DNA of 64,000 nt from Parcubacteria group bacterium (GCA_016186325.1 JACPLW010000012.1:18644-82643); one strand, 5' to 3'. Positions 36,100 to 47,678 are shown, counted from the first letter of the stretch. Made by a program: numbers and translations. The notes: generated from the letters alone by a model not told the origin.

Positions 36100-37688
36100 T
36101 ATAGTAGCCGGCCAAGGCCCTGGTTTTGTATTTTTCCTTCAGAAAAAGCCATTTTCCCGTTAATAATAACCGAATGAATTCCTCCGGAATACTGAAAAGG
36201 GTTTTCGTAAGTCGCCAGGTCTTTTACGGTCTCCGGGTTAAAAACGGTAATATCGGCAAAATACCCGTCTTTAATAACGCCGCAGTTTTTTAGGCCCATT
36301 TTAAGCGCCGGCAAAGCCGTCATTTTCTTTATCGCCTCTTCCCAGCTCAAAATGTTTTTTTCACGAACATAGCGGCCCAAAACTCTGGTAAAAGAGCCGA
36401 AAGAGCGGGGATGAAAAAGCTGATTTGATTGCGCGTCATCCAAATTGGCGGCAACGCCGTCGGAAACAATGATAGAAAACGGACTTTTTAACGATTCAAT
36501 TAAATTTTCTTCACTAAGAGAATTCCAAAAAACCATTAATCTTCCTTCCGCGGAAATCAAAAGATTAATTATCGCTTCGCAAACTCCTACGCCTTGATTC
36601 TTGGCGATATTGCCGATAGTTTTCCCGATATAAATTTTATCAATGTCTCCGGACGCGATTACAATATCTTTAAATTCATCCTTGCCCTCCATAGCTTTAG
36701 CGACGGAGGGTTGTTTCATCTCCGAAATAGCGCGAGCCCGCAGTTGTTGATTTTTTAAGTTTTCTACAAGTTTTGTTCTGCCGCCAACGGCAATCCAGTC
36801 GGGCAAAAGAGTATACAAAATGGTTGCGGTTGAAGCATACGGATAGACATCAAAATTAATATTCATCCCCGTTTCGGCCGCTTGGTGAATCTCGTCCAAG
36901 CTTTTTTTAAACAGCGGCCAATTATTTTTTCCGACAGCTTTAAAATGAGAAATCTCAAGATTTGTTTTATTTTTTCTTGCCGTTTCAATAGCCTCAACAA
37001 CACTTTCGTAAAGCTTGGCGCCTTCGTCTCTTAAATGCGTCGCGTAAATTTTTCCGGAATCTAAAATCGACAAAAGGCCGGATATTTCTTCGGACAAGAC
37101 TATCTTAGCGTGCGAATAGCTTAGTCCGGTTGAAAATCCAATCGCCCCGTCGTTTATAGAGGCCTCAAGCAGATGTTTCATTTGAGAAAATTCCTTTGAG
37201 TCCAAATCCCGAAATTCATCCTTTATAATCCCCCGCCGCAAGGTAGAATGACCAACTAAAGTACCGAAATTCAAAAGTAGTTTTCTTTTTTTTATTTCTT
37301 CAAAAAATTCACGGGTCGTCTGCCAGTTAACGTTAATTTTTTTGACATCGGCCCATTTTTGGATGCTTAAAATAATGTTGCCGGAGGTTAGCGGTGATAA
37401 AGAAGAACCGCAGTTTCCTCCGATAATCGTGGTAATCCCCTGGCGCACCAAACTTTCCGCGTTCGGATGGCTAAAAAGCGTCCAGTACCGGTCTGAGGCA
37501 TTGTTTATATCAATAAATCCGGGAGCAACAAAAAGACCGGTGGCATCAATGGTGGTTTTCGCGCTTGGCGTGCCTAAAAAACCGATTTTCTCTATCTTTC
37601 CGTCTTTTATTGCGATATCAGCATGATACGCCGGCGTCCCCACGCCATCTATCACCGTTCCGTTTTTAATTAAAATATCTAAGGCCAT
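36099..37688 (-). CDS. amidohydrolase, N-acyl-D-amino-acid deacylase (D-aminoacylase) family
   Basis: 529 aa; 'ILIKNGTVIDGVG..DIAIKDGKI', 'APGFID'; contains in-frame GC-rich repeat (36684-36710) encoding 'SVAKAMEGK'. Confidence 0.6.
   Translation of the reverse strand: MALDILIKNGTVIDGVGTPAYHADIAIKDGKIEKIGFLGTPSAKTTIDATGLFVAPGFIDINNASDRYWTLFSHPNAESLVRQGITTIIGGNCGSSLSPLTSGNIILSIQKWADVKKINVNWQTTREFFEEIKKRKLLLNFGTLVGHSTLRRGIIKDEFRDLDSKEFSQMKHLLEASINDGAIGFSTGLSYSHAKIVLSEEISGLLSILDSGKIYATHLRDEGAKLYESVVEAIETARKNKTNLEISHFKAVGKNNWPLFKKSLDEIHQAAETGMNINFDVYPYASTATILYTLLPDWIAVGGRTKLVENLKNQQLRARAISEMKQPSVAKAMEGKDEFKDIVIASGDIDKIYIGKTIGNIAKNQGVGVCEAIINLLISAEGRLMVFWNSLSEENLIESLKSPFSIIVSDGVAANLDDAQSNQLFHPRSFGSFTRVLGRYVREKNILSWEEAIKKMTALPALKMGLKNCGVIKDGYFADITVFNPETVKDLATYENPFQYSGGIHSVIINGKMAFSEGKIQNQGLGRLL
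36684..36710. repeat. GC-rich element GCCCTCCATAGCTTTAGCGACGGAGGG in frame inside amidohydrolase gene
   Basis: Same family as 21891-21917 and 27070-27130. Confidence 0.65.
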
Positions 37689-37854
37689 TACTCATATTAT
37701 ACAACAATGATAGTCAAAAACAAAAAACCGCTAAGGAGGCGAGCAATTTTGTGGCTGTGGACAACCTATTGACTTTTTATAAGCGCTTATGCTATACTTT
37801 TTCTATTCATAAGAAGAAGCACCTCCTTGGGTTTTGTCCCTCGGCGGTGCTTTT

Positions 37855-38343
37855 TCATTTATATTCAAGCTTTTTTCGCAAATTATCCATAAATACAACT
37901 CTCTCTTTTGCTTCCTTTTTCAGTAAAGTTGAACAGGTTTTAACATACGGACTCATCACAAATCGCAATTTATTATTTTGATAAAGATGTTTTACCAGAG
38001 AATAAAAATCTCCATCACTCGAAACAATGATTGCCTGATTATAGTTTGGAAAATCAATCATGGCCTGTAAAACGAGATCGGCATCTATATTGCCCTTTAC
38101 ATTCCCATCATCGTCCGGAATAGTTGGCTTAAAAACCAATACATAGCCAGCTTTTTGCAGCTCAGAATAAAGCGGCTGATTGCCAGCCACATAACCGATA
38201 AAGTAATACGCTGTTGCTACAGAATATTTTTCCGCAAGGTATTTTCTAAAACGCCAATAATTTAATTTCCAGCCCAAGCTTTGAATACCTAGATTAAGAT
38301 TCTGACCATCTATAAACGCAAAATTGTTTTCGTCTTTTTTCAT
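37855..38343 (-). CDS. NYN-domain (LabA/DUF88-like, PIN-fold) putative ribonuclease
   Basis: Start at internal ATG 38343 ('MKKDENNFAFIDGQNL'); 'IVSSDGDF'; the track N-terminal extension overlaps the upstream gene. Confidence 0.65.
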   Translation of the reverse strand: MKKDENNFAFIDGQNLNLGIQSLGWKLNYWRFRKYLAEKYSVATAYYFIGYVAGNQPLYSELQKAGYVLVFKPTIPDDDGNVKGNIDADLVLQAMIDFPNYNQAIIVSSDGDFYSLVKHLYQNNKLRFVMSPYVKTCSTLLKKEAKERVVFMDNLRKKLEYK

Positions 38344-38356
38344 AAATTTACCATGC

Positions 38357-38557
38357 CTAATTTTTTGTTGGCCAGTATTCAAATAATTCACCGCATTTAT
38401 TACATTCGTATTGATAAAAAACATTAGTAAATTTAGGATATTCTTGCATTAATCTTGGTCTAACTATTGCGTCTCCATTTTCAATTTTAGTAATTTCGTG
38501 AATGTTAGAACTTTTACATTTAAGATTAGGGCATTCCTTTTCATTAGTTTTTTTCAT
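38357..38557 (-). CDS. small zinc-ribbon protein (two CxxC pairs)
   Basis: 66 aa; 'CPNLKC' ... 'CNKCG'; 13 nt upstream of NYN gene. Confidence 0.45.
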   Translation of the reverse strand: MKKTNEKECPNLKCKSSNIHEITKIENGDAIVRPRLMQEYPKFTNVFYQYECNKCGELFEYWPTKN

Positions 38558-38602
38558 AAATTTATTTTTAATAATTTAAGTTGATCATATAACTAAAAAC
38601 GA

Positions 38603-39913
38603 CTACTTATCTGACAGGTCTTCGATAGCGCCCTCTTTAATACCTCTAGCAGCCTTCACTGATTGAATTATCTTGTCCAACATAGTTTCATCCTTCCCAT
38701 AGACTTGCCCTGGGTGGCGCGCTATTACCTTTATCAGTTGAACGTCAAGTTCTTTTCTTGCTCCGGGTGAAATTGGATACGAGCCTTGTGTCTCTCTTGA
38801 AGAGAAATTTAGATACATTTTAGTTACTTGTGCTTTGTGGTTATATTCTTCAGCCAATCGTCTTTTGTGCGAGATACTTCTTTGTCCAAACCATGAGATC
38901 CACCATAAAGGTAAGCTAATAATTAGGCGGCCGTAAAAATTTAATCCACTTAGGTGACTTGCAATAATACTACTCGGATCTTGAGAACCCACTGCCCGAG
39001 CAAACCATTCAGGCTGAATAAAAATAGAGACAGAAATTAAGAGTGGCAATACAAAAAATACATAATCAAGAAGAACCATTATTATACTAATCACAAACAT
39101 TAAGATATTGGAAAAAATCGAGCCTACATTTTGGCCCAGTGTTCCATCTAATTTTTTGTATTCAGGTTCTTGTTTGTACTCTTTTTTTGATTTTAAAAAA
39201 CCTTCAACCAAAGAACCTCCAGAAGCCCCGACTAGCAACGCCTTAACATCCTTCGCCTTATTTACTATGTCGTCCTTAGTTTCTTTTAGAAATGGTGAGA
39301 TATCATTGTCGACATTAGCTCGAAAAGTTCTTATACGCTCAATATCCTTATTTAGTTTAGAAACCTTATTGTCTCCCTGCTCATCTTTAGCATATAGATC
39401 CTCATGAGATTTAATAACCTCTGCATGAGCAGACTCAATGGCTTTTGCGTACCCACCATCTTTCGTAAGATCAGAGTGGAATTTAGTAATATCCTCTATT
39501 ACTGTCTTTATTTTCTTCTCTTCTCCCTCTCCTTCTGTTCCACCAAAAAGATAAACATAAAAATCCGTAATATTATCTTGAGACTCCCGTATATCAGATT
39601 TAATAGACTCATCGCCTTCGAGTAAATCTTTATGATACTTTCGTATATCATCTAATTTTGTATTTAGTTCTGAAATCTTTGAAACACCAGATTCATTACT
39701 AACAAACAAATCACTGTATAGCTTTATAATATCTTCTAGGTGTGTTTCTACCTCGACAATAAGAGATTTCTTACCATCCTCACTTTCAAATAGCTTTTTA
39801 TAAGCTTCATTTATTTTTTTAATTTGAGATAAAGCATCTTTAACAAAGTTATCAAACTCTTTTTTACTAAAAGAATCTTCCGATTGAATATTTTGATTAT
39901 TTACATCTTCCAT
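38603..39913 (-). CDS. hypothetical protein: ~230-aa acidic cytoplasmic domain with internal ~45-aa repeats, then C-terminal membrane domain
   Basis: Repeated 'K(Y/F)H.DL..G' / 'DLYAKDEQG' units; TM segments 'ILMFVISIIMVLLDYVFFVLPLLI' and 'LIISLPLWWISWF'. Confidence 0.5.
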   Translation of the reverse strand: MEDVNNQNIQSEDSFSKKEFDNFVKDALSQIKKINEAYKKLFESEDGKKSLIVEVETHLEDIIKLYSDLFVSNESGVSKISELNTKLDDIRKYHKDLLEGDESIKSDIRESQDNITDFYVYLFGGTEGEGEEKKIKTVIEDITKFHSDLTKDGGYAKAIESAHAEVIKSHEDLYAKDEQGDNKVSKLNKDIERIRTFRANVDNDISPFLKETKDDIVNKAKDVKALLVGASGGSLVEGFLKSKKEYKQEPEYKKLDGTLGQNVGSIFSNILMFVISIIMVLLDYVFFVLPLLISVSIFIQPEWFARAVGSQDPSSIIASHLSGLNFYGRLIISLPLWWISWFGQRSISHKRRLAEEYNHKAQVTKMYLNFSSRETQGSYPISPGARKELDVQLIKVIARHPGQVYGKDETMLDKIIQSVKAARGIKEGAIEDLSDK

Positions 39914-40058
39914 AAATTTAATATTTTAATTCTGGCAAATATTTGGAGACTGATTTAAGACTAATTTTCCGGCTACATTTTATCTCTTTTATACTTTTTT
40001 GGCAAATTAAAAACTACCTCCGCCTGAATGGAGTCGGATTGGTAATTTGTAACTATTT

Positions 40059-40277
40059 TCATTTCGTATGTTTTTCTAGCGCTTCTCTTATAGACTCGAC
40101 TTCGTATTCTCTCTTGAACGTATCCCAACGCATATCTTTGCGCACGTTGAAATCAACGTTGTAGCGTTTCTCTAGTGTTTCTATCTTAGTATCACCGCGA
40201 ATTTTTTTAAGACGACCTCCTTGTGTCCTTGCTGCATGACCGGGCATATTTGGTGCGTTAGTATCTAGTTTTGGCAT
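40059..40277 (-). CDS. hypothetical small basic protein (72 aa)
   Basis: ORF preceded by GC-rich leader with terminator (40322-40342). Confidence 0.4.
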   Translation of the reverse strand: MPKLDTNAPNMPGHAARTQGGRLKKIRGDTKIETLEKRYNVDFNVRKDMRWDTFKREYEVESIREALEKHTK

Positions 40278-40321
40278 GATATCTTTTAATACTTAATTTT
40301 TATATTCGACCTTTAAGCAAC

Positions 40322-40420
40322 AAAAAACGCGGCTTTCCCGCGATTCATTTCTGAAACACCACCGAACAGCGGAGCTGTCGGGAAAGTATTTTTATGTGAA
40401 TCGGGGCGATAATGATTGAG
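40322..40420 (-). promoter_or_regulatory. candidate attenuator leader: CCGACAGC-ucc-GCUGUUCGG hairpin then CGCGG-gaaag-CCGCG + U6 terminator upstream of 40059-40277
   Basis: Upstream CUUUCCCG can pair with the terminator 5' arm CGGGAAAG (alternative antiterminator). Confidence 0.35.
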
Positions 40421-40573
40421 ATTTAATAAATTTAAAATTTTATAAATCCCCGATTGATGGATGCCGATTTTTAGTTGTTATTTAGATTTTAACAAATGTA
40501 TTACGTATGTCAATACAATATGTGGATAACTTTCGGTTTATTTTCGGTATCAGAAGTTTTATAATTAATATAT

Positions 40574-41167
40574 ATGTTAACAAAACGCCAAAAACAAATT
40601 TTAGATTTTTATAACAAGTTTTCTAAGAAACATGAATATTCCCCTTCTCTAGAAGAAACGGCAAAACACTTTCACCTATCGTCGGTTTCTGGTATCCACC
40701 AACATATTCAGGCACTTATAGAAAAGGGATGCTTAAGTAGGCAAAAAAATAAGCCGCGAGGAATTGAAATAGAAAAATCGGAAAAGCTTGTAAAAATTCC
40801 CTTGCTTGGCACAATCGCGGCTGGTGGCCCCATTGAAGCAATTAGAAGCCCCGAGATTATAGAAGTTATGCGCAGCATGCTCTCAAGTGGCGCTAATCAC
40901 TATGCCCTAAAAGTGTTGGGAGTAAGTATGATAGAAGAAGGTATTTCTGACGGCGATATTGTGATTGTTCGTGAACAATCGGCCGTCAATGACGGTGAAA
41001 AAGCAGTTGCGTATCTTCCCGACAAAAATACGGTTACTTTAAAAAAGATTTATAGAGAGCAAAATCGTATAAAACTTGTTCCGACAAATAAAACGATGAA
41101 GCCGTTTTACGAAAAAAATATTGAAGTTCAGGGCAAGGTAGTTGGAGTTTTAAGAAAGGAAATTTAG
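40574..41167 (+). CDS. lexA: LexA-family repressor (wHTH + S24 peptidase)
   Basis: 197 aa; 'GTIAAGGPIEA', catalytic Ser in 'LGVSMIEEGI', Lys in 'VTLKKI'. Confidence 0.8.
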   Translation: MLTKRQKQILDFYNKFSKKHEYSPSLEETAKHFHLSSVSGIHQHIQALIEKGCLSRQKNKPRGIEIEKSEKLVKIPLLGTIAAGGPIEAIRSPEIIEVMRSMLSSGANHYALKVLGVSMIEEGISDGDIVIVREQSAVNDGEKAVAYLPDKNTVTLKKIYREQNRIKLVPTNKTMKPFYEKNIEVQGKVVGVLRKEI

Positions 41168-41179
41168 TAAAATTACATT

Positions 41180-42721
41180 ATGAGTGGAAGCAAATCAATA
41201 ATAAATAATCTGCCAATACAAGATTTTAATTTAGTGCTTGACCGCCTTGGATTAGAAAAGGCATGGTATTCAATTTTAGCGACTAACTTAAGTAAAAATA
41301 ACAGAGACGACTTAAGATACATTTTTGACGAAAAAGAATTTAGAAATAACGAAATTCAAAACTTTGATTTTATTGGAGGCCTTACCATTGGTGAAATTTC
41401 GGTACTTTATGAATATTCTCTTGCTTATACAGATCGCGACAAGCGAAAACAAGAGGGACAATATTTTACTCCGGACGACGTTGCACAAATCATGGCAAAA
41501 AAGGTCTCCTCTTTTCCAAAAAATAAATTATGGATAGACCCGTGTTCTGGTGTCGGAAATTTGTCTTATTGGCTTATTCAACATCAAGAAAATAAGGAGA
41601 ATTTTTTAAAAAATAATATATTTCTTATTGATCGTGATAAATTAGCCTTATTTATTGCGCGATTTGTTTTAACAGTTAATTTTCAGAAAAAAGATAAAAA
41701 ATTATTTAAAAATATAAAATCCCGCTTTATCGTTTCTGACTTCTTGCTTTCTGATAATATACCAAAATATGATTATGCAATTCTTAACCCGCCCTATGTA
41801 GTTGTAGAACCCGATATGCGATTTGAAACAAGTACAACAAGAGATCTTTATGCTTATTTTTTAGAAAAAGTTATAAAAACTTCTATCGGTTTTGTTTCAA
41901 TCACGCCGCAAACATTTACAAATGGTCAAAAATTTAATCCTTTAAGGAAACTACTTCTAAATAACTTCGGTGACATTAGTGTTTATTGTTTTGACAATGT
42001 ACCTGATAACATTTTTCGCGGGATCAAATTTGGTTCAAAGAATACAAACAAAGCGAATAGTACAAGAGCAGGTATTATAGTTGCAAAACAAAATGATAAG
42101 GAACAAATTTTTAGAATAACCCCACTTCTCCGATGGCGTGTTAAAGATAGACAAAAACTTCTTAACTCTGTTGATGAATTTTTGGTTCAAATTAAACCAA
42201 AGGAAGATATTTTCCCGAAACTACAAAAGAATTTATTACCTCTTTACGATTTCGCGAAGAGACAAGAAAAAGTATTGGCCCACTTTGTGTCACAACGGCC
42301 AACACAATATAAGTTGATCGTTCCATCTACGCCAAGATACTTTATCTCCGCCCTCAAAAGGTCAGTGGAGCGATCTTCGTTCAAAACACTTTATTTTTAT
42401 AGCGAACAAGAAAGAGACACTGCGTATCTATTACTAAATAGCAGTTATATGTACTGGTGGTGGCGAGTTAATGATGGAGGAATGACGATATCAGAAAGAA
42501 CATTACTGACATTACCTATCATTAATAAAATTTCAATTGATAAAAACCTTTTGTTAAAAATCGAGCAATCAGAACGAACAAATTGTGTAGTTAAAAGAAA
42601 TGCAGGTAAAGATAATGAAAATGTAAAACATGACCCGTCATTAATAAAAGAAATTAACCAATGCCTTTTCCCGCGCTTTGCAAATGCACTAGAAATGTTA
42701 CATAATAATTCTGTAATTTAA
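41180..42721 (+). CDS. N6-adenine DNA methyltransferase (gamma-class), type II R-M
   Basis: 513 aa; 'GQYFTPDDVAQIM', motif I 'IDPCSGVGNL', motif IV 'AILNPPYVV', ~280-aa C-terminal putative TRD. Confidence 0.75.
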   Translation: MSGSKSIINNLPIQDFNLVLDRLGLEKAWYSILATNLSKNNRDDLRYIFDEKEFRNNEIQNFDFIGGLTIGEISVLYEYSLAYTDRDKRKQEGQYFTPDDVAQIMAKKVSSFPKNKLWIDPCSGVGNLSYWLIQHQENKENFLKNNIFLIDRDKLALFIARFVLTVNFQKKDKKLFKNIKSRFIVSDFLLSDNIPKYDYAILNPPYVVVEPDMRFETSTTRDLYAYFLEKVIKTSIGFVSITPQTFTNGQKFNPLRKLLLNNFGDISVYCFDNVPDNIFRGIKFGSKNTNKANSTRAGIIVAKQNDKEQIFRITPLLRWRVKDRQKLLNSVDEFLVQIKPKEDIFPKLQKNLLPLYDFAKRQEKVLAHFVSQRPTQYKLIVPSTPRYFISALKRSVERSSFKTLYFYSEQERDTAYLLLNSSYMYWWWRVNDGGMTISERTLLTLPIINKISIDKNLLLKIEQSERTNCVVKRNAGKDNENVKHDPSLIKEINQCLFPRFANALEMLHNNSVI

Positions 42722-42726
42722 TCCTT

Positions 42727-43383
42727 ATGATCTCAAAAGGTTTAGCTATACAATTAGAAAAATTGCTTAAAAAAATACCGGCCTTTTGGGACGGCCGCAA
42801 AGCAATCCTTGAAATGAAAGGGACGGGTTATTCGCACTGGAAACAAATGGAGTGGATAGGTTTCTATTTTCAATTTCTTTGTGATACAAAATTATCTCCG
42901 TTGGTAAAAATACCCGGTCCCAAGTACAATAGAGTAGAGTTTGATGGATTTGCCGAAATACCTTGGGATTTTAAAGCACACCCGAACAAAAACGCTACTG
43001 GTCAGGAGAACAAAAGTATTATTATCAATGATCGATTGGCCACCATAAAAGCAATTAAGCAATTCGGAGAAGCCGGACTTATACTAGCAATTGGGGATGC
43101 AGAATATAATGATGAAAATAGAAGCTTCCAAATTTGGCATAAAAAATTAAAGGGTGGGTTGTCTAATTACGAGAAACAAAGAATTTTGCGTAAAGCGCCT
43201 TCACGCTTGAGAAAAACCGCCTTCAAGTTGAAAGAAATTAAATTGGTTTTGATGAATAATAATATGATTCGAAAACTAAGTTCATTTCAAGAAGGTTTTA
43301 GAAATTCTGATGGAAGCCCAAGAAACGCGAAGTTACTTTTGGACTTAGATAAGATTGTTGCTGCCAAAACAATCCGATTTTAA
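42727..43383 (+). CDS. putative restriction endonuclease partner (PD-(D/E)xK-like)
   Basis: 218 aa directly 3' of MTase; 'VEFDGFAEIPWDFKAH' fits D...E.K spacing; weak. Confidence 0.4.
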   Translation: MISKGLAIQLEKLLKKIPAFWDGRKAILEMKGTGYSHWKQMEWIGFYFQFLCDTKLSPLVKIPGPKYNRVEFDGFAEIPWDFKAHPNKNATGQENKSIIINDRLATIKAIKQFGEAGLILAIGDAEYNDENRSFQIWHKKLKGGLSNYEKQRILRKAPSRLRKTAFKLKEIKLVLMNNNMIRKLSSFQEGFRNSDGSPRNAKLLLDLDKIVAAKTIRF

Positions 43384-43577
43384 AAAATTTTATTCTAATC
43401 TTCTTTTTCAAAATTAAGGCAAACGGAGTTTATGCAATACCTTTTTCCTTGCATTTGTACACCCCCTTTTCATGAGTATCCCAATATTTCCCGGAAAAAG
43501 GCGCTTCCGTATTATTTAAATCTTTATCTTTTTGATCGTAGGGCATTTAATCAATTAATGCATATTTTATTAAATAT

Positions 43578-43937
43578 TTATTGTCGTTTTTTATACTCTC
43601 CGAAAACGTGTACCCAGCCTTTTCTTTTGCGCTGCGTTTTTTCCGTTAATTCTCTTGTCTCGGCATCGTAGTATATGTTTTTTACTTCTTCGTCGGTTAT
43701 TGTTTCTTGAATTCGATCAAGCGCATCAACATTCACGTCATATTTTTTAACCAACTCAAAATCGCCTAAGTTTAATTGCGCCGTCTCGTTGTTATTAAGA
43801 TAGTTTACAGATATATATTCGGGGCCACTGCTATATGCTTGCGCCCAGCGACCATCAATTTTAATAATATCAAGCGTTGGCGGATATTCCGCTTTCTGTT
43901 CAGTTTCTCTTTTTATACTTTCTTCATTTTTCATTTC
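43578..43937 (-). CDS. hypothetical protein (start at internal ATG 43937)
   Basis: 'MKNEESIKRETEQ...'; the longer track ORF overlaps mraY. Confidence 0.4.
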   Translation of the reverse strand, partial: EMKNEESIKRETEQKAEYPPTLDIIKIDGRWAQAYSSGPEYISVNYLNNNETAQLNLGDFELVKKYDVNVDALDRIQETITDEEVKNIYYDAETRELTEKTQRKRKGWVHVFGEYKKRQ

Positions 43938-44964
43938 ATTTACCAAGTAGACCGATGACAAGGCCGATGGTGGCGGTAACGGCGGAAATAATCCAAAAGC
44001 GCATTGTAACTTTTGTTTCCGGCCAGCCCATTGCCTCAAAATGGTGATGAATGGGCGTTGAAAGAAAGATTTTTTTTCCGCGGAATTTTTTTGAAATCAT
44101 CTGAACGATTACCGAACCGGATTCCAAAACAAGAATAAAAGCGATAAGCGGCAAAAGAAGCGCGGCGTTAGTAAGCATGGCAACAATGCCAAGCGTTACT
44201 CCAAGCGACATCGCACCAGTGTCCCCCATAAAAAACCGCGCCGGATGAATATTAAACCACAAAAATGCCAATAGGGCGCCCACGATAACGCCGGTAAATG
44301 CCGCCAAATCATAATGTTCTTGAGTGAAGGCTAGGGCGCCCAAAGCGGCAAAAGCGAATAAAAGAACTCCGCCCGCAAGGCCGTCCAAACCGTCGGTTTC
44401 ATTGGTAGAAAAAGCAGTGGCAACAATTATAAAAATAAAAATCGGCAAATACCAAAAGCCGACACTAAAATCCCCTAAAAATGGAATATAAAAAACATCA
44501 AAGCCAAGTTTGAAATAAAACCACCACGCGCCTATGGCCGCCACGGCAGTATAAAGAAAAATCTTATGTTTCATTGACAATCCCCCGCCCTTTGGACCTA
44601 TCCGAAAAATACCAAGTAAATCATCGGCAAATCCTAAGATTGCCGAAAAAACTAAGGCGCCTAGCGGCAAAAATGTCTGTGAACGGCTTAAAAAATTAAA
44701 ACGGTTGAAAATGCCGTCAAAAAACAAAGAAAATAACCAGAAGCCGATAGCTAAAACCAGGGTTGTCCCCCAAACCAAGATTCCACCCATAGTCGGCGTG
44801 CCTTCTTTGCTTCCATGAATTTTGGCAAAAATTGGAGCGCCCTCGGTTCTTATCTGCTTTCCAAGCCTATATTTAAACAAAAAATGCGTTAAAAGCGGAG
44901 TTAAAGAAAACGCCACCAAAAACGAAACTGAAGTTAAAATTAAAAGTCGTGTTATCTCGCTCAT
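43936..44964 (-). CDS. mraY: phospho-N-acetylmuramoyl-pentapeptide transferase MraY
   Basis: Start at ATG 44964 ('MSEITRLLILTSV'); 'DDLLGIF', 'NETDGLDGLAGG', 'MGDTGA'. Confidence 0.9.
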   Translation of the reverse strand: MSEITRLLILTSVSFLVAFSLTPLLTHFLFKYRLGKQIRTEGAPIFAKIHGSKEGTPTMGGILVWGTTLVLAIGFWLFSLFFDGIFNRFNFLSRSQTFLPLGALVFSAILGFADDLLGIFRIGPKGGGLSMKHKIFLYTAVAAIGAWWFYFKLGFDVFYIPFLGDFSVGFWYLPIFIFIIVATAFSTNETDGLDGLAGGVLLFAFAALGALAFTQEHYDLAAFTGVIVGALLAFLWFNIHPARFFMGDTGAMSLGVTLGIVAMLTNAALLLPLIAFILVLESGSVIVQMISKKFRGKKIFLSTPIHHHFEAMGWPETKVTMRFWIISAVTATIGLVIGLLGK

Positions 44965-46704: not shown

Positions 46705-47508
46705 TCATAAATTATCGCTGACTTTTTTTACTTTAATCTCTCCGAATAATTTATCTTGGGAAATTTCTAAAACTCTTTTTCTAAAAAGCATTAAAATCGC
46801 AATAAACGCCAAAACAACATTAATCTTTTCTGCTTTTGAGGTCGAACCACTTGTGGTGAGCAAAGTCGAACCACTTGTGGTGAGCAAAGTCGAACCACTT
46901 GTGGTGAGCAAAGTCGAACCAGAAATTTCGTTAAATGACGCTTCGGCCGCCGTACTTACTCTGCCCATAAGTTCTTCAATTTTTTCTTCCAAACTCATTA
47001 TTCTAACAAGGCCTTTTTCTTCCAATTTTTCAATCTGGGGCAGAGTCTTTAAAAATAGTTCGTAGATGTTTTTGAGATCTTCTATCGTAATACTTTTAGG
47101 CGGATAGAAGGTGGTTTGTAGGTTTAAAAAGTATTCTCTTGAAAAATAAGAATTGCGGCCCTTTGTCCATTTTCCCAGCATCTTCGCCATTGTTTTGATT
47201 TCCTGATACGCCTTTAACCGATTTTGCAGGTCTTTTATATCATCTTCTTCTTCAACGCTTAAAACAAGATTGGGCAAAAGCGAACGCGATTTTATAAGAA
47301 TCAGGCGGCTTGCAACAACCAAAAAATCAGCAAGTATTCTTTGATACTCGCTAGATACATCGCTTTTTATTTTTTTTAGATATTCCAAAAACTGATCCGT
47401 AACCTGTGCCAAAGAAATTTCGCCTATGGCCATCTTTTTTTCTTCTATTAAAGAAATTAGAAGATCTAACGGACCGGTAAATTTTTCTAAACTGACTTTA
47501 TATTCCAT
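46705..47508 (-). CDS. scpA: segregation and condensation protein A
   Basis: 267 aa; 'FTGPLDLLISLIEEKK'; C-terminal region contains a tandem octapeptide repeat. Confidence 0.85.
   Translation of the reverse strand: MEYKVSLEKFTGPLDLLISLIEEKKMAIGEISLAQVTDQFLEYLKKIKSDVSSEYQRILADFLVVASRLILIKSRSLLPNLVLSVEEEDDIKDLQNRLKAYQEIKTMAKMLGKWTKGRNSYFSREYFLNLQTTFYPPKSITIEDLKNIYELFLKTLPQIEKLEEKGLVRIMSLEEKIEELMGRVSTAAEASFNEISGSTLLTTSGSTLLTTSGSTLLTTSGSTSKAEKINVVLAFIAILMLFRKRVLEISQDKLFGEIKVKKVSDNL
46841..46922. repeat. 24-bp tandem repeat x3.4 (GTCGAACCACTTGTGGTGAGCAAA) inside scpA, encoding (TTSGSTLL)x3
   Basis: Perfect copies at 46841, 46865, 46889 read directly. Confidence 0.85.
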
Positions 47509-47539
47509 AATTTATTGCTAGAAAAAATAATTACATATT

Positions 47540-47655
47540 TATTCTCTAAGCGGGTTATGAGCGCGAAGCGGGCATGGTGTCCCGCGAAGCGGGACGAGCG
47601 AGCGCGAATCCCTGAGCGAGCACGCTGGGCGAGCGAGGAAAGCGAGAGAATAAAT
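47540..47655. repeat. GC-rich repeat-laden intergenic block (GCGCGAAGCGGG, GTCCCGCgaaGCGGGACGAGCGAGCGCGAA, GAGCGAG repeats) bounded by IR TATTCTCT/AGAGAATA
   Basis: Between aspS stop and scpA start. Confidence 0.5.
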
Positions 47656-47678
47656 ATGGAATTATTGTTGTATTTTGA

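Follow-up and report, generated by a model that had tools for sequence, protein, structure and literature searches.

Variable gene content between mraY and an amidohydrolase gene in a Parcubacteria-group genome, and a membrane-protein family linked to type I restriction-modification operons

We analyzed a 64-kb stretch of DNA (JACPLW010000012.1:18644-82643, hereafter the window, with positions counted from its first nucleotide) from a metagenome-assembled genome of the Parcubacteria group, which belongs to the Candidate Phyla Radiation (CPR), and concentrated on the interval between mraY and a D-aminoacylase-like amidohydrolase gene inside its dcw cell-wall cluster. This interval is quite probably an insertion and replacement hot spot of an Azambacteria-like Parcubacteria lineage. 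In this genome, it contains at least four unrelated units, each mobile on its own, out of a gene pool common to CPR bacteria. One of these units encodes a membrane protein of 436 amino acids (aa), whose family is described by none of the resources searched and is linked to type I restriction-modification (R-M) operons.

The mraY-amidohydrolase interval in relatives

Relatives were located via homologues of the amidohydrolase, and their neighborhoods were then read. All four keep the backbone aspS-scpA-scpB-dacA-mraY-X-amidohydrolase-ftsW-murG-gltX-M23 peptidase, and the content of slot X, listed here with the identity of the amidohydrolase, differs each time.

L106 (Azambacteria), 69% identity: slot X empty, with 165 nucleotides (nt) between mraY and the amidohydrolase gene
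L105, 76% identity: msrB alone
L104, 86% identity: a NUDIX gene, two small open reading frames (ORFs), msrB interrupted by a GIY-YIG domain, a MazG-like gene, a 368-aa ORF, a HipA_C gene, and a 103-aa ORF
L024, 89% identity: msrB, a 143-aa DpnI-family gene, a Zn-ribbon gene, and an NYN nuclease gene

An earlier note on this DNA had read the interval as an accessory island comprising a trio of NYN nuclease, Zn ribbon, and 436-aa membrane protein, followed by lexA and a type II R-M system. The accessory reading stands because the trio is not syntenic with the dcw cluster across the lineage; the relatives were checked for such synteny, and their slot was empty, contained only msrB, or carried other cargo. 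All genes named in the note were recovered by ORF calling at the positions it gave, and the full variable interval (about 37702-43933) extends slightly beyond its limits of 37700-43383. The genes of the interval and its surroundings are the following.

37855-38343, minus strand: stand-alone NYN nuclease (LabA-like, PIN-related; Pfam NYN), 162 aa
38357-38557, minus strand: Zn-ribbon-like ORF, 66 aa, 13 nt upstream of the NYN gene
38603-39913, minus strand: 436-aa membrane protein of an undescribed family, with repeats, two predicted membrane helices, and the motif EEYNHK
40059-40277, minus strand: hypothetical ORF, 72 aa, preceding the 436-aa gene and divergent from lexA
40320-40513, minus strand: candidate promoter, structured leader, and intrinsic terminator, preceding the 72-aa ORF
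40574-41167, plus strand: LexA repressor (TIGR00498; PF01726 and PF00717)
41180-42721, plus strand: gamma-class N6-adenine DNA methyltransferase (PADLOC MTase_II; N6_Mtase and Eco57I domains)
42727-43383, plus strand: candidate PD-(D/E)xK restriction endonuclease, EcoRV-like by fold matches, 218 aa
43401-43510, minus strand: msrB remnant (tblastn with MsrB of L105; blastn agrees)
43578-43904, minus strand: hypothetical 108-aa ORF, window-specific, between the msrB remnant and mraY

MurG, FtsW, and the amidohydrolase form the left flank, and MraY, an S11 carboxypeptidase, ScpB, and ScpA the right flank. The GC content is 0.31-0.36 within the interval versus 0.39-0.43 in the flanks. The interval is a mosaic with identifiable genes and definite breakpoints. 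DNA homology of the backbone to the relatives ends at about 37701-37732 and picks up again at 43934, and that to L024 stops at 38577, within the 45 nt that separate the stop of the 436-aa gene (38603) from the start of the Zn-ribbon gene (38557). On the other side, 18 nt beyond the end of the R-M cassette, lies a remnant of msrB that had escaped the earlier note and that marks the hot spot. It retains MsrB residues 12-31 (43510-43451) and 100-115 (43448-43401), and the deleted residues 32-99 comprise the Zn-binding and catalytic core.

In the history that we propose, the NYN gene with its small Zn-ribbon ORF would be the unit that is older at the site; the nearest relative has it as well. The second unit would be the 436-aa two-pass membrane protein with the 72-aa ORF upstream, the third a bona fide lexA, and the fourth a two-gene type II R-M cassette that would have inserted next to msrB, of which the deleted remnant is left. 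Two of the type I R-M islands with homologues of the 436-aa protein contain DpnI-like genes that share 68-71% identity with the one in L024, and the hot spot therefore appears to use one shared pool of defense genes.

This DpnI-like protein consists of the DpnI catalytic domain only, has 139-145 aa, and recurs in L024 (1353-1784), L107 (47-484), and L007 (13708-14127). Its genes are located in the mraY hot spot in L024 and otherwise at the edges of type I R-M islands with 436-aa homologues.

The interval resembles chromosomal defense-island hot spots in its conserved flanks, variable cargo, empty site, and lower GC content, as well as in its R-M, toxin-antitoxin, and nuclease contents. It differs from them in its position inside the dcw cluster of a streamlined CPR genome and in that no integrase, tRNA, or flanking repeats were found in the island of the window. 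As a whole, the island is an ordinary defense hot spot, and its LexA, type II R-M, and NYN components belong to known families.

The earlier note went further and suggested that NYN, Zn ribbon, and 436-aa protein form one co-functional, defense- or toxin-like operon. The three genes are on the same strand with gaps of only 45 and 13 nt, and the identity of the nuclease was correct, as it matched Pfam NYN (PF01936) with E = 5.4e-14 and 53.4 bits against a cut-off of 24.2, covering profile positions 5-139 of 145. The acidic residues D12 (FIDGQN), D87/D89 (IDADL), and D110/D112 (SSDGDF) are present at what we take to be the catalytic positions of the PIN-like fold. The 66-aa ORF 13 nt upstream of the NYN gene is likewise real, but its description as a double-CxxC Zn ribbon applies only in part: the first cysteine pair is C9-x4-C14, and only C52-x2-C55 is a true CxxC motif. 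All profile matches of this ORF in Pfam and NCBIfam were below cut-off.

A metagenome scan with the NYN protein gave 80 loci with 66-96% identity, in unrelated contexts and from many environments, and none of the 80 had a 436-aa homologue. The only Zn-ribbon homologue among them (76% identity) was in L024, again directly upstream of the NYN gene; in the other 64 of the 65 loci with enough upstream sequence, no Zn ribbon preceded it. The gene ahead of NYN in these 65 loci differed almost every time and could be HsdM, HsdS, HicA-like, Bro-N-like, another NYN, or a housekeeping gene. From the other direction, among 18 independent loci with a member of the 436-aa family, of which the window is one, only the window had the trio, and none of the other 17 had an adjacent NYN or Zn ribbon; one of them, L013, had an NYN fragment about 7 kb away. 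Finally, L024 keeps the order Zn ribbon-NYN-amidohydrolase with a DpnI-like gene where the window has the 436-aa gene, and the homology breakpoint falls into the 45-nt gap. The idea of a single operon is thereby already largely refuted, and we regard it as very improbable. The trio is better described as a juxtaposition of separately mobile units, apparently an accident of neighborhood, in which Zn ribbon and NYN behave as one older unit and the 436-aa gene seems to have arrived separately.

The NYN protein would then act alone as an RNase. Its gene is highly conserved in unrelated neighborhoods, and in several contigs (L041, L049, L076, L080, L082, L096, and L098) a second, more divergent NYN copy adjoins it; together, this suggests a selfish or frequently transferred gene. 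In 4 of the 80 loci, parts of type I R-M systems were nearby, and the copy in L093 lies between hsdS and hsdR. This position and weak PADLOC matches (NYN, 9e-9; HEC-09, 2.6e-5), matches that also count for the operon idea, recall the HEC-09 and PADLOC NYN candidates, which are embedded NYN/MARF1-like RNases. The window protein differs in that it matches the C-terminal NYN part only and is without the N-terminal helix-turn-helix-like domain. HEC-09 itself gave no phage protection in tests (Payne et al., 2024; bioRxiv 10.1101/2024.01.29.577857).

Two further observations concern the msrB genes at the hot spot. In L104 (6091-6726), msrB codes for a fusion of 211 aa in which a GIY-YIG nuclease domain interrupts the SelR domain; this looks like the in-frame insertion of a homing-endonuclease-like domain. 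In addition, a GC-rich element of about 110 nt with inverted repeats of about 25 nt at its ends, which in the window lies in the scpA-aspS spacer (47523-47669), was found with 82-88% identity directly downstream of msrB, inside the hot spot, in L024 (1122-1232) and L104 (6752-6875). It may be a small mobile element, similar to a miniature inverted-repeat transposable element, or a structured element.

The 436-aa membrane protein family

The strongest evidence on the 436-aa family is its genomic context, which the earlier note had missed. At 11 of the 18 independent loci, the homologue is inside a type I R-M operon, between hsdM and hsdS (L003, L007, L009, L013, L014, L016, L017, L018, L020, L022, and L107), and the embedded copy of L107 is 63% identical to the protein of the window. 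With X now denoting the homologue, the gene order is (RadC)-half-hsdS-hsdM-(Bro-N or RhuM)-X-hsdS-hsdR-ygjP, and the homologue lies tightly against hsdS: the two genes overlap by 4 nt in L007 and are 2 nt apart in L003. In L005, it is directly upstream of a type III R-M system, and at one of the 18 loci it follows a DUF4145 gene. The family is thus linked to R-M systems and embedded in their operons.

The type I operons of these CPR loci themselves have an unusual layout, common to L003, L007, L009, L013, L014, L016, L020, and L107, in which hsdM is preceded by a half-size hsdS (about 192 aa) and followed by a full-size one. RadC is often found upstream, a YgjP/WLM-like metallopeptidase after hsdR, and Bro-N or RhuM is often embedded.

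A database search yielded 75 close homologues of the 436-aa protein, and a profile search against 1.84 billion cluster representatives gave 927 matches at E < 1e-3 and 286 at E < 1e-10. The family is mostly found in CPR genomes, with outliers in Polaribacter (Bacteroidota) and Marinamargulisbacteria. The protein itself had no match above cut-off in Pfam-A or NCBIfam, matched no PADLOC model, and had no PDB sequence relative at E ≤ 0.001. When 52 members were compared with PHROGs, 14 of them matched phrog_30912 (best 3e-6) and 17 matched phrog_34659, both without a function label. The 436-aa protein had no match among PLSDB plasmids, nor did the 218-aa endonuclease candidate; among INPHARED phages, neither the 436-aa protein nor NYN had a match, and the 436-aa family had none in IMG/VR. 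Matches of the family to PDB entries (myosin, syntaxin, and designed bundles) were coiled-coil matches in the N-terminal half and were rejected as compositional, and weak matches to HOOK, DivIVA, Fib_alpha, LmuB, JetC, and ZorA were rejected as coiled-coil noise.

The protein consists of helical repeats (residues 1-250), two predicted membrane helices (261-305 and 326-345), and a C-terminal cytoplasmic domain with the EEYNHK motif at 355-360. The first hydrophobic segment was taken from hydropathy, and the second is the start of a model helix that spans residues 326-371. In the all-helical AlphaFold model (predicted local distance difference test, pLDDT, 74.7; predicted template-modeling score, pTM, 0.39), seven N-terminal helices are followed by a long helix that passes through the first hydrophobic segment, the second membrane helix runs on into the cytoplasm, and three short helices form the C-terminus. 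The repeats proposed in the earlier note are real, as ungapped self-matches of 22-mers scored 55, 47, and 47 compared to a mean maximum of 29.7 and a highest value of 42 in shuffled sequences. The offsets of 28, 52, and 104 aa correspond to about eight helices of about 26 aa or four hairpins of about 52 aa, and the N-terminal domain contains 56 D/E and 42 K/R.

Among family members, the N-terminal repeats vary, and the conserved core comprises LLPxA before the first membrane helix, F287 and P290 within it, P335 in the second, and EEYNHK. Among members that share only 16-23% overall identity, three of these positions (P335, Y357, and K360) never vary, and the other four residues of the motif (E355, E356, N358, and H359) stay at 90% conservation or more. 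The predicted topology is two-pass, with both termini and the repeat domain in the cytoplasm, and the charged motif, which is strongly constrained, lies where the membrane meets the cytoplasm.

Two known effector types come to mind with this architecture. SLATT effectors with two transmembrane helices, which act in abortive infection or in systems like the cyclic-oligonucleotide-based antiphage signaling system, share the cytoplasmic region, the two membrane helices, the short conserved cytoplasmic tail, and the defense context, and two SLATT-annotated viral proteins were among the weak Foldseek matches in BFVD (ranks 8 and 33; E values of 0.27 and 1.1, not significant). In Pfam searches, SLATT was matched neither by the window protein (E ≤ 0.1) nor by 10 distant members or 52 members (E ≤ 0.001), and to our knowledge EEYNHK is not a SLATT feature. 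The spacing R352-x6-H359 fits the Rx4-6H pattern of HEPN domains, and R352 is conserved in about 90% of close members and less in distant ones. The motif directly follows a membrane helix, which is atypical for HEPN, and HEPN found no profile match in the 436-aa protein or the 52 members and no fold support.

As the 436-aa gene lies between mraY and ftsW, one could also think of a housekeeping division or envelope protein similar to DivIVA or EzrA that belongs with the dcw genes, and weak coiled-coil matches were obtained to DivIVA with the protein of the window (E = 0.022) and to EzrA with two of the 52 distant members. All of these matches were below cut-offs (15.1 bits versus 28 for DivIVA) and in the low-complexity helical region, the gene is not at this locus in the four relatives, and the usual home of the family is an R-M operon. 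We therefore consider a division function extremely improbable.

Defense functions are enriched among genes embedded in type I R-M loci (Payne et al., bioRxiv 10.1101/2024.01.29.577857), with TgvAB of Vibrio VPI-2 as a precedent (PMC11411939), and an enrichment for defense systems also applies to genes embedded in loci of BREX (bacteriophage exclusion) and DISARM (defense island system associated with restriction-modification) (bioRxiv 10.1101/2024.01.29.577857; PMC11411939). Like PrrC, RloC, and further genes located inside type I R-M loci, the 436-aa family occurs as an extra gene in the hsdM-hsdS-hsdR operon and is apparently co-expressed. It differs in that it has no ATPase, HEPN anticodon-nuclease, or GmrSD domain, is a two-pass membrane protein with helical repeats, and has no match among the 5027 PADLOC models beyond coiled-coil noise. 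By analogy to PrrC and from the enrichment of embedded genes, the protein is a candidate second-line, R-M-associated defense effector, in which the repeats would sense or bind and the membrane helices with EEYNHK would execute, probably at the membrane; we lean slightly toward a defense-related function.

Going one step further, the family could be a new class of membrane-acting immune effector that guards R-M, a membrane counterpart of PrrC, which we put forward tentatively. The homologue would be co-expressed with the type I R-M system and monitor the R-M complex, the helical repeats would respond to a disabled R-M complex, a phage protein, or a phage anti-restriction factor, for example, and the two membrane helices together with the EEYNHK module would then collapse the membrane in the manner of abortive infection. 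Since the model had no significant fold match and a pTM of 0.39, the argument for this mechanism draws on architecture and context, and the specific mechanism is a possibility that we would call doubtful at present.

The main competing explanation is a structural role as an accessory of type I R-M enzymes, such as a membrane tether that would place the restriction complex at the site of DNA entry. The constant position between hsdM and hsdS, the close abutment to hsdS, and the long helical cytoplasmic domain, which is suited to protein binding, would all fit a tether. The gene nevertheless occurs without a neighboring type I R-M system in the window as well as in L001, L005, L008, L019, L021, and L023, most type I R-M systems have no 436-aa homologue, and the conservation of EEYNHK at 16-23% overall identity suggests an active or gating site and not a passive anchor. 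We regard the tether as unlikely and prefer the R-M-associated effector.

Several points weigh against the overall picture of a hot spot with a membrane-acting effector among its cargo. There is no tRNA, no integrase or recombinase gene, and no convincing flanking (att) repeat at the island. The 18 independent loci are a small sample, determined by contig reach or by matches to a peptide pattern; 7 of them have no embedding type I R-M system, and at four of them (L008, L019, L021, and L023) the gene is located among housekeeping genes. The copy in the window is itself not inside a type I R-M operon and is two genes away from the type II R-M system, with lexA beside it; tblastn with HsdM, HsdS, and HsdR found no type I genes in the 64 kb, only a weak match of HsdM to the type II methyltransferase. 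The model of the 436-aa protein has no significant fold match and a pTM of only 0.39, and the fold matches of the candidate endonuclease of the type II cassette are marginal (best E 5.5e-3; template-modeling score about 0.3).

LexA, the type II cassette, and smaller elements

LexA was identified correctly in the earlier note. It scored 176.6 bits with the TIGR00498 equivalog model (cut-off 110.95) and contains LexA_DNA_bind (PF01726) and Peptidase_S24 (PF00717). The cleavage site A83-G84 and the Ser/Lys dyad S118 (GVSM) and K157 (TLKK) are present, so that judging from these residues LexA is intact, genuine, and predicted to be competent for self-cleavage. In the slot of the relatives L024, L104, L105, and L106, there is no lexA.

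The gamma-class assignment of the N6-adenine methyltransferase was also correct, as the DPCSGVG motif I at residue 120 of the 513-aa protein precedes NPPY at residue 203, which is the gamma-class order, and PADLOC MTase_II matched with E = 5e-141. The methyltransferase has no sequence relative in the PDB. Only 5 nt after its gene starts the ORF for the 218-aa protein, which has more than 1000 homologues with 64-82% identity in several CPR groups. In L010 and L011, a methyltransferase of 503-513 aa (78-81% identical) and the 218-aa gene occur with the same 5-nt spacing at unrelated sites and without lexA, and the DNA homology to these loci covers 41162/41195-43381 only, which is exactly the two genes. 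The pair thus appears to be a self-contained two-gene type II R-M cassette that is inherited as a unit. The grouping of lexA with the R-M genes in the earlier note could not be maintained: lexA does not belong to the cassette because the homology to the other copies begins at the methyltransferase start codon, and those copies have no lexA.

For the 218-aa protein, the earlier note had proposed a PD-(D/E)xK nuclease, and this is reasonably supported by fold matches and conserved residues. It has no profile match in Pfam, PADLOC, or NCBIfam and no sequence relative in the PDB. The AlphaFold2 model, generated with 37 sequences, is confident, with a pLDDT of 89.6 and a pTM of 0.87; its best Foldseek matches in the PDB are EcoRV (E 5.5e-3), DpnI, HincII, NhoI, SwaI, and SfiI, and nearly all of the top 49 fold matches are type II restriction endonucleases or Hjc. 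Residues D73 and K83 do not vary in the sequences, and at least 90% of these retain E42 and D81. As the fold scores are marginal, we consider the protein a probable and not a proven PD-(D/E)xK restriction endonuclease.

With its methyltransferase-then-nuclease order, the 5-nt gap, and fold matches to EcoRV, HincII, SwaI, and DpnI, the cassette resembles EcoRV-type type IIP systems. The likeness extends to the pattern E42...D73...D81-x-K83, which resembles E45/D74/D90-x-K92 of EcoRV. It differs in that the 218-aa protein has no detectable sequence similarity to any solved restriction endonuclease and in that the methyltransferase of the window, with its 513 aa, belongs to the gamma class and has an Eco57I-type domain. 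The cassette would restrict unmethylated DNA. The most under-represented 4-bp palindromes in the whole window are TCGA (91 observed, 174 expected) and GATC (118 observed, 196 expected), which is compatible with restriction avoidance; general avoidance or another R-M system could also explain this depletion, and a target cannot be assigned from it.

It is conceivable that lexA and the cassette form a local regulatory unit, in which the R-M genes would be transcribed by read-through from the lexA promoter, repressed by LexA, and inducible by DNA damage. The genes point in the same direction and are 12 nt apart, a consensus scan found no promoter- or terminator-like site between them, and LexA is intact, so that some local read-through across the gap may occur. 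Promoter consensus scans are, however, unreliable for CPR bacteria, no LexA box was definable because the operator search gave only AT-rich palindromes that could not be interpreted, and since the cassette occurs elsewhere without lexA (L010 and L011), any coupling would be local and recent. We therefore see a regulatory unit as rather doubtful and treat lexA as an independent component of the hot spot.

The region upstream of the 72-aa ORF contains a strong promoter-like sequence on the minus strand (TTGACA-16-TAAAAT with a TG extension, 40513-40486; consensus scan), and an intrinsic terminator (40342-40328, followed by T6) lies about 140 nt past this site and about 50 nt before the ORF. The leader of about 200 nt folds with a z-score of -3.45, with 0 of 200 shuffles being as stable, and the terminator stem faces competition from another pairing within it. 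An attenuator, a riboswitch-like leader, and a small RNA are possible identities. There was no Rfam match to the leader and no full-length homologue among the fetched loci, the sole match there being 33 nt in L083 with 91% identity; the region 37000-44500 as a whole contained no tRNA or Rfam family.

The 72-aa and 108-aa ORFs had no significant family match in profile searches and no homologue in any fetched locus. The NCBI entries HYW79_03945 and HYW79_03965 are 100% identical to the 436-aa and 218-aa proteins of the window, respectively, and the spacing of the locus tags at NCBI suggests that the 72-aa ORF is annotated. Outside the interval, the octapeptide SGSTLLTT occurs three times in perfect tandem near the C-terminal third of the ScpA ORF (46705-47508, minus strand), an in-frame 24-nt repeat within a housekeeping gene.

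Significance for CPR bacteria

CPR bacteria, or Patescibacteria, make up a large part of bacterial diversity. Most of them have no CRISPR-Cas, and their defense is believed to depend on R-M systems (PMC12455944); extra components of CPR R-M loci are for this reason a likely place for immune functions that have so far escaped description. The site analyzed here, which is empty, minimally filled, or differently filled in relatives, offers a natural comparison of how a streamlined genome swaps defense genes inside its cell-wall cluster. LexA, the type II R-M system, and NYN are ordinary parts of this island. Beyond them, the window draws attention to a membrane-protein family that is widespread, not annotated so far, and tightly integrated into type I R-M operons. 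This family comprises at least about 900 sequence clusters, and most of its examined copies are from CPR bacteria. The family fits a known kind of gene, namely accessory genes embedded in R-M loci, with a different effector type. Should it turn out to be a defense effector or an accessory of R-M systems, one of the best-studied bacterial immune systems would gain a new component, and current annotation resources a family definition that they lack.

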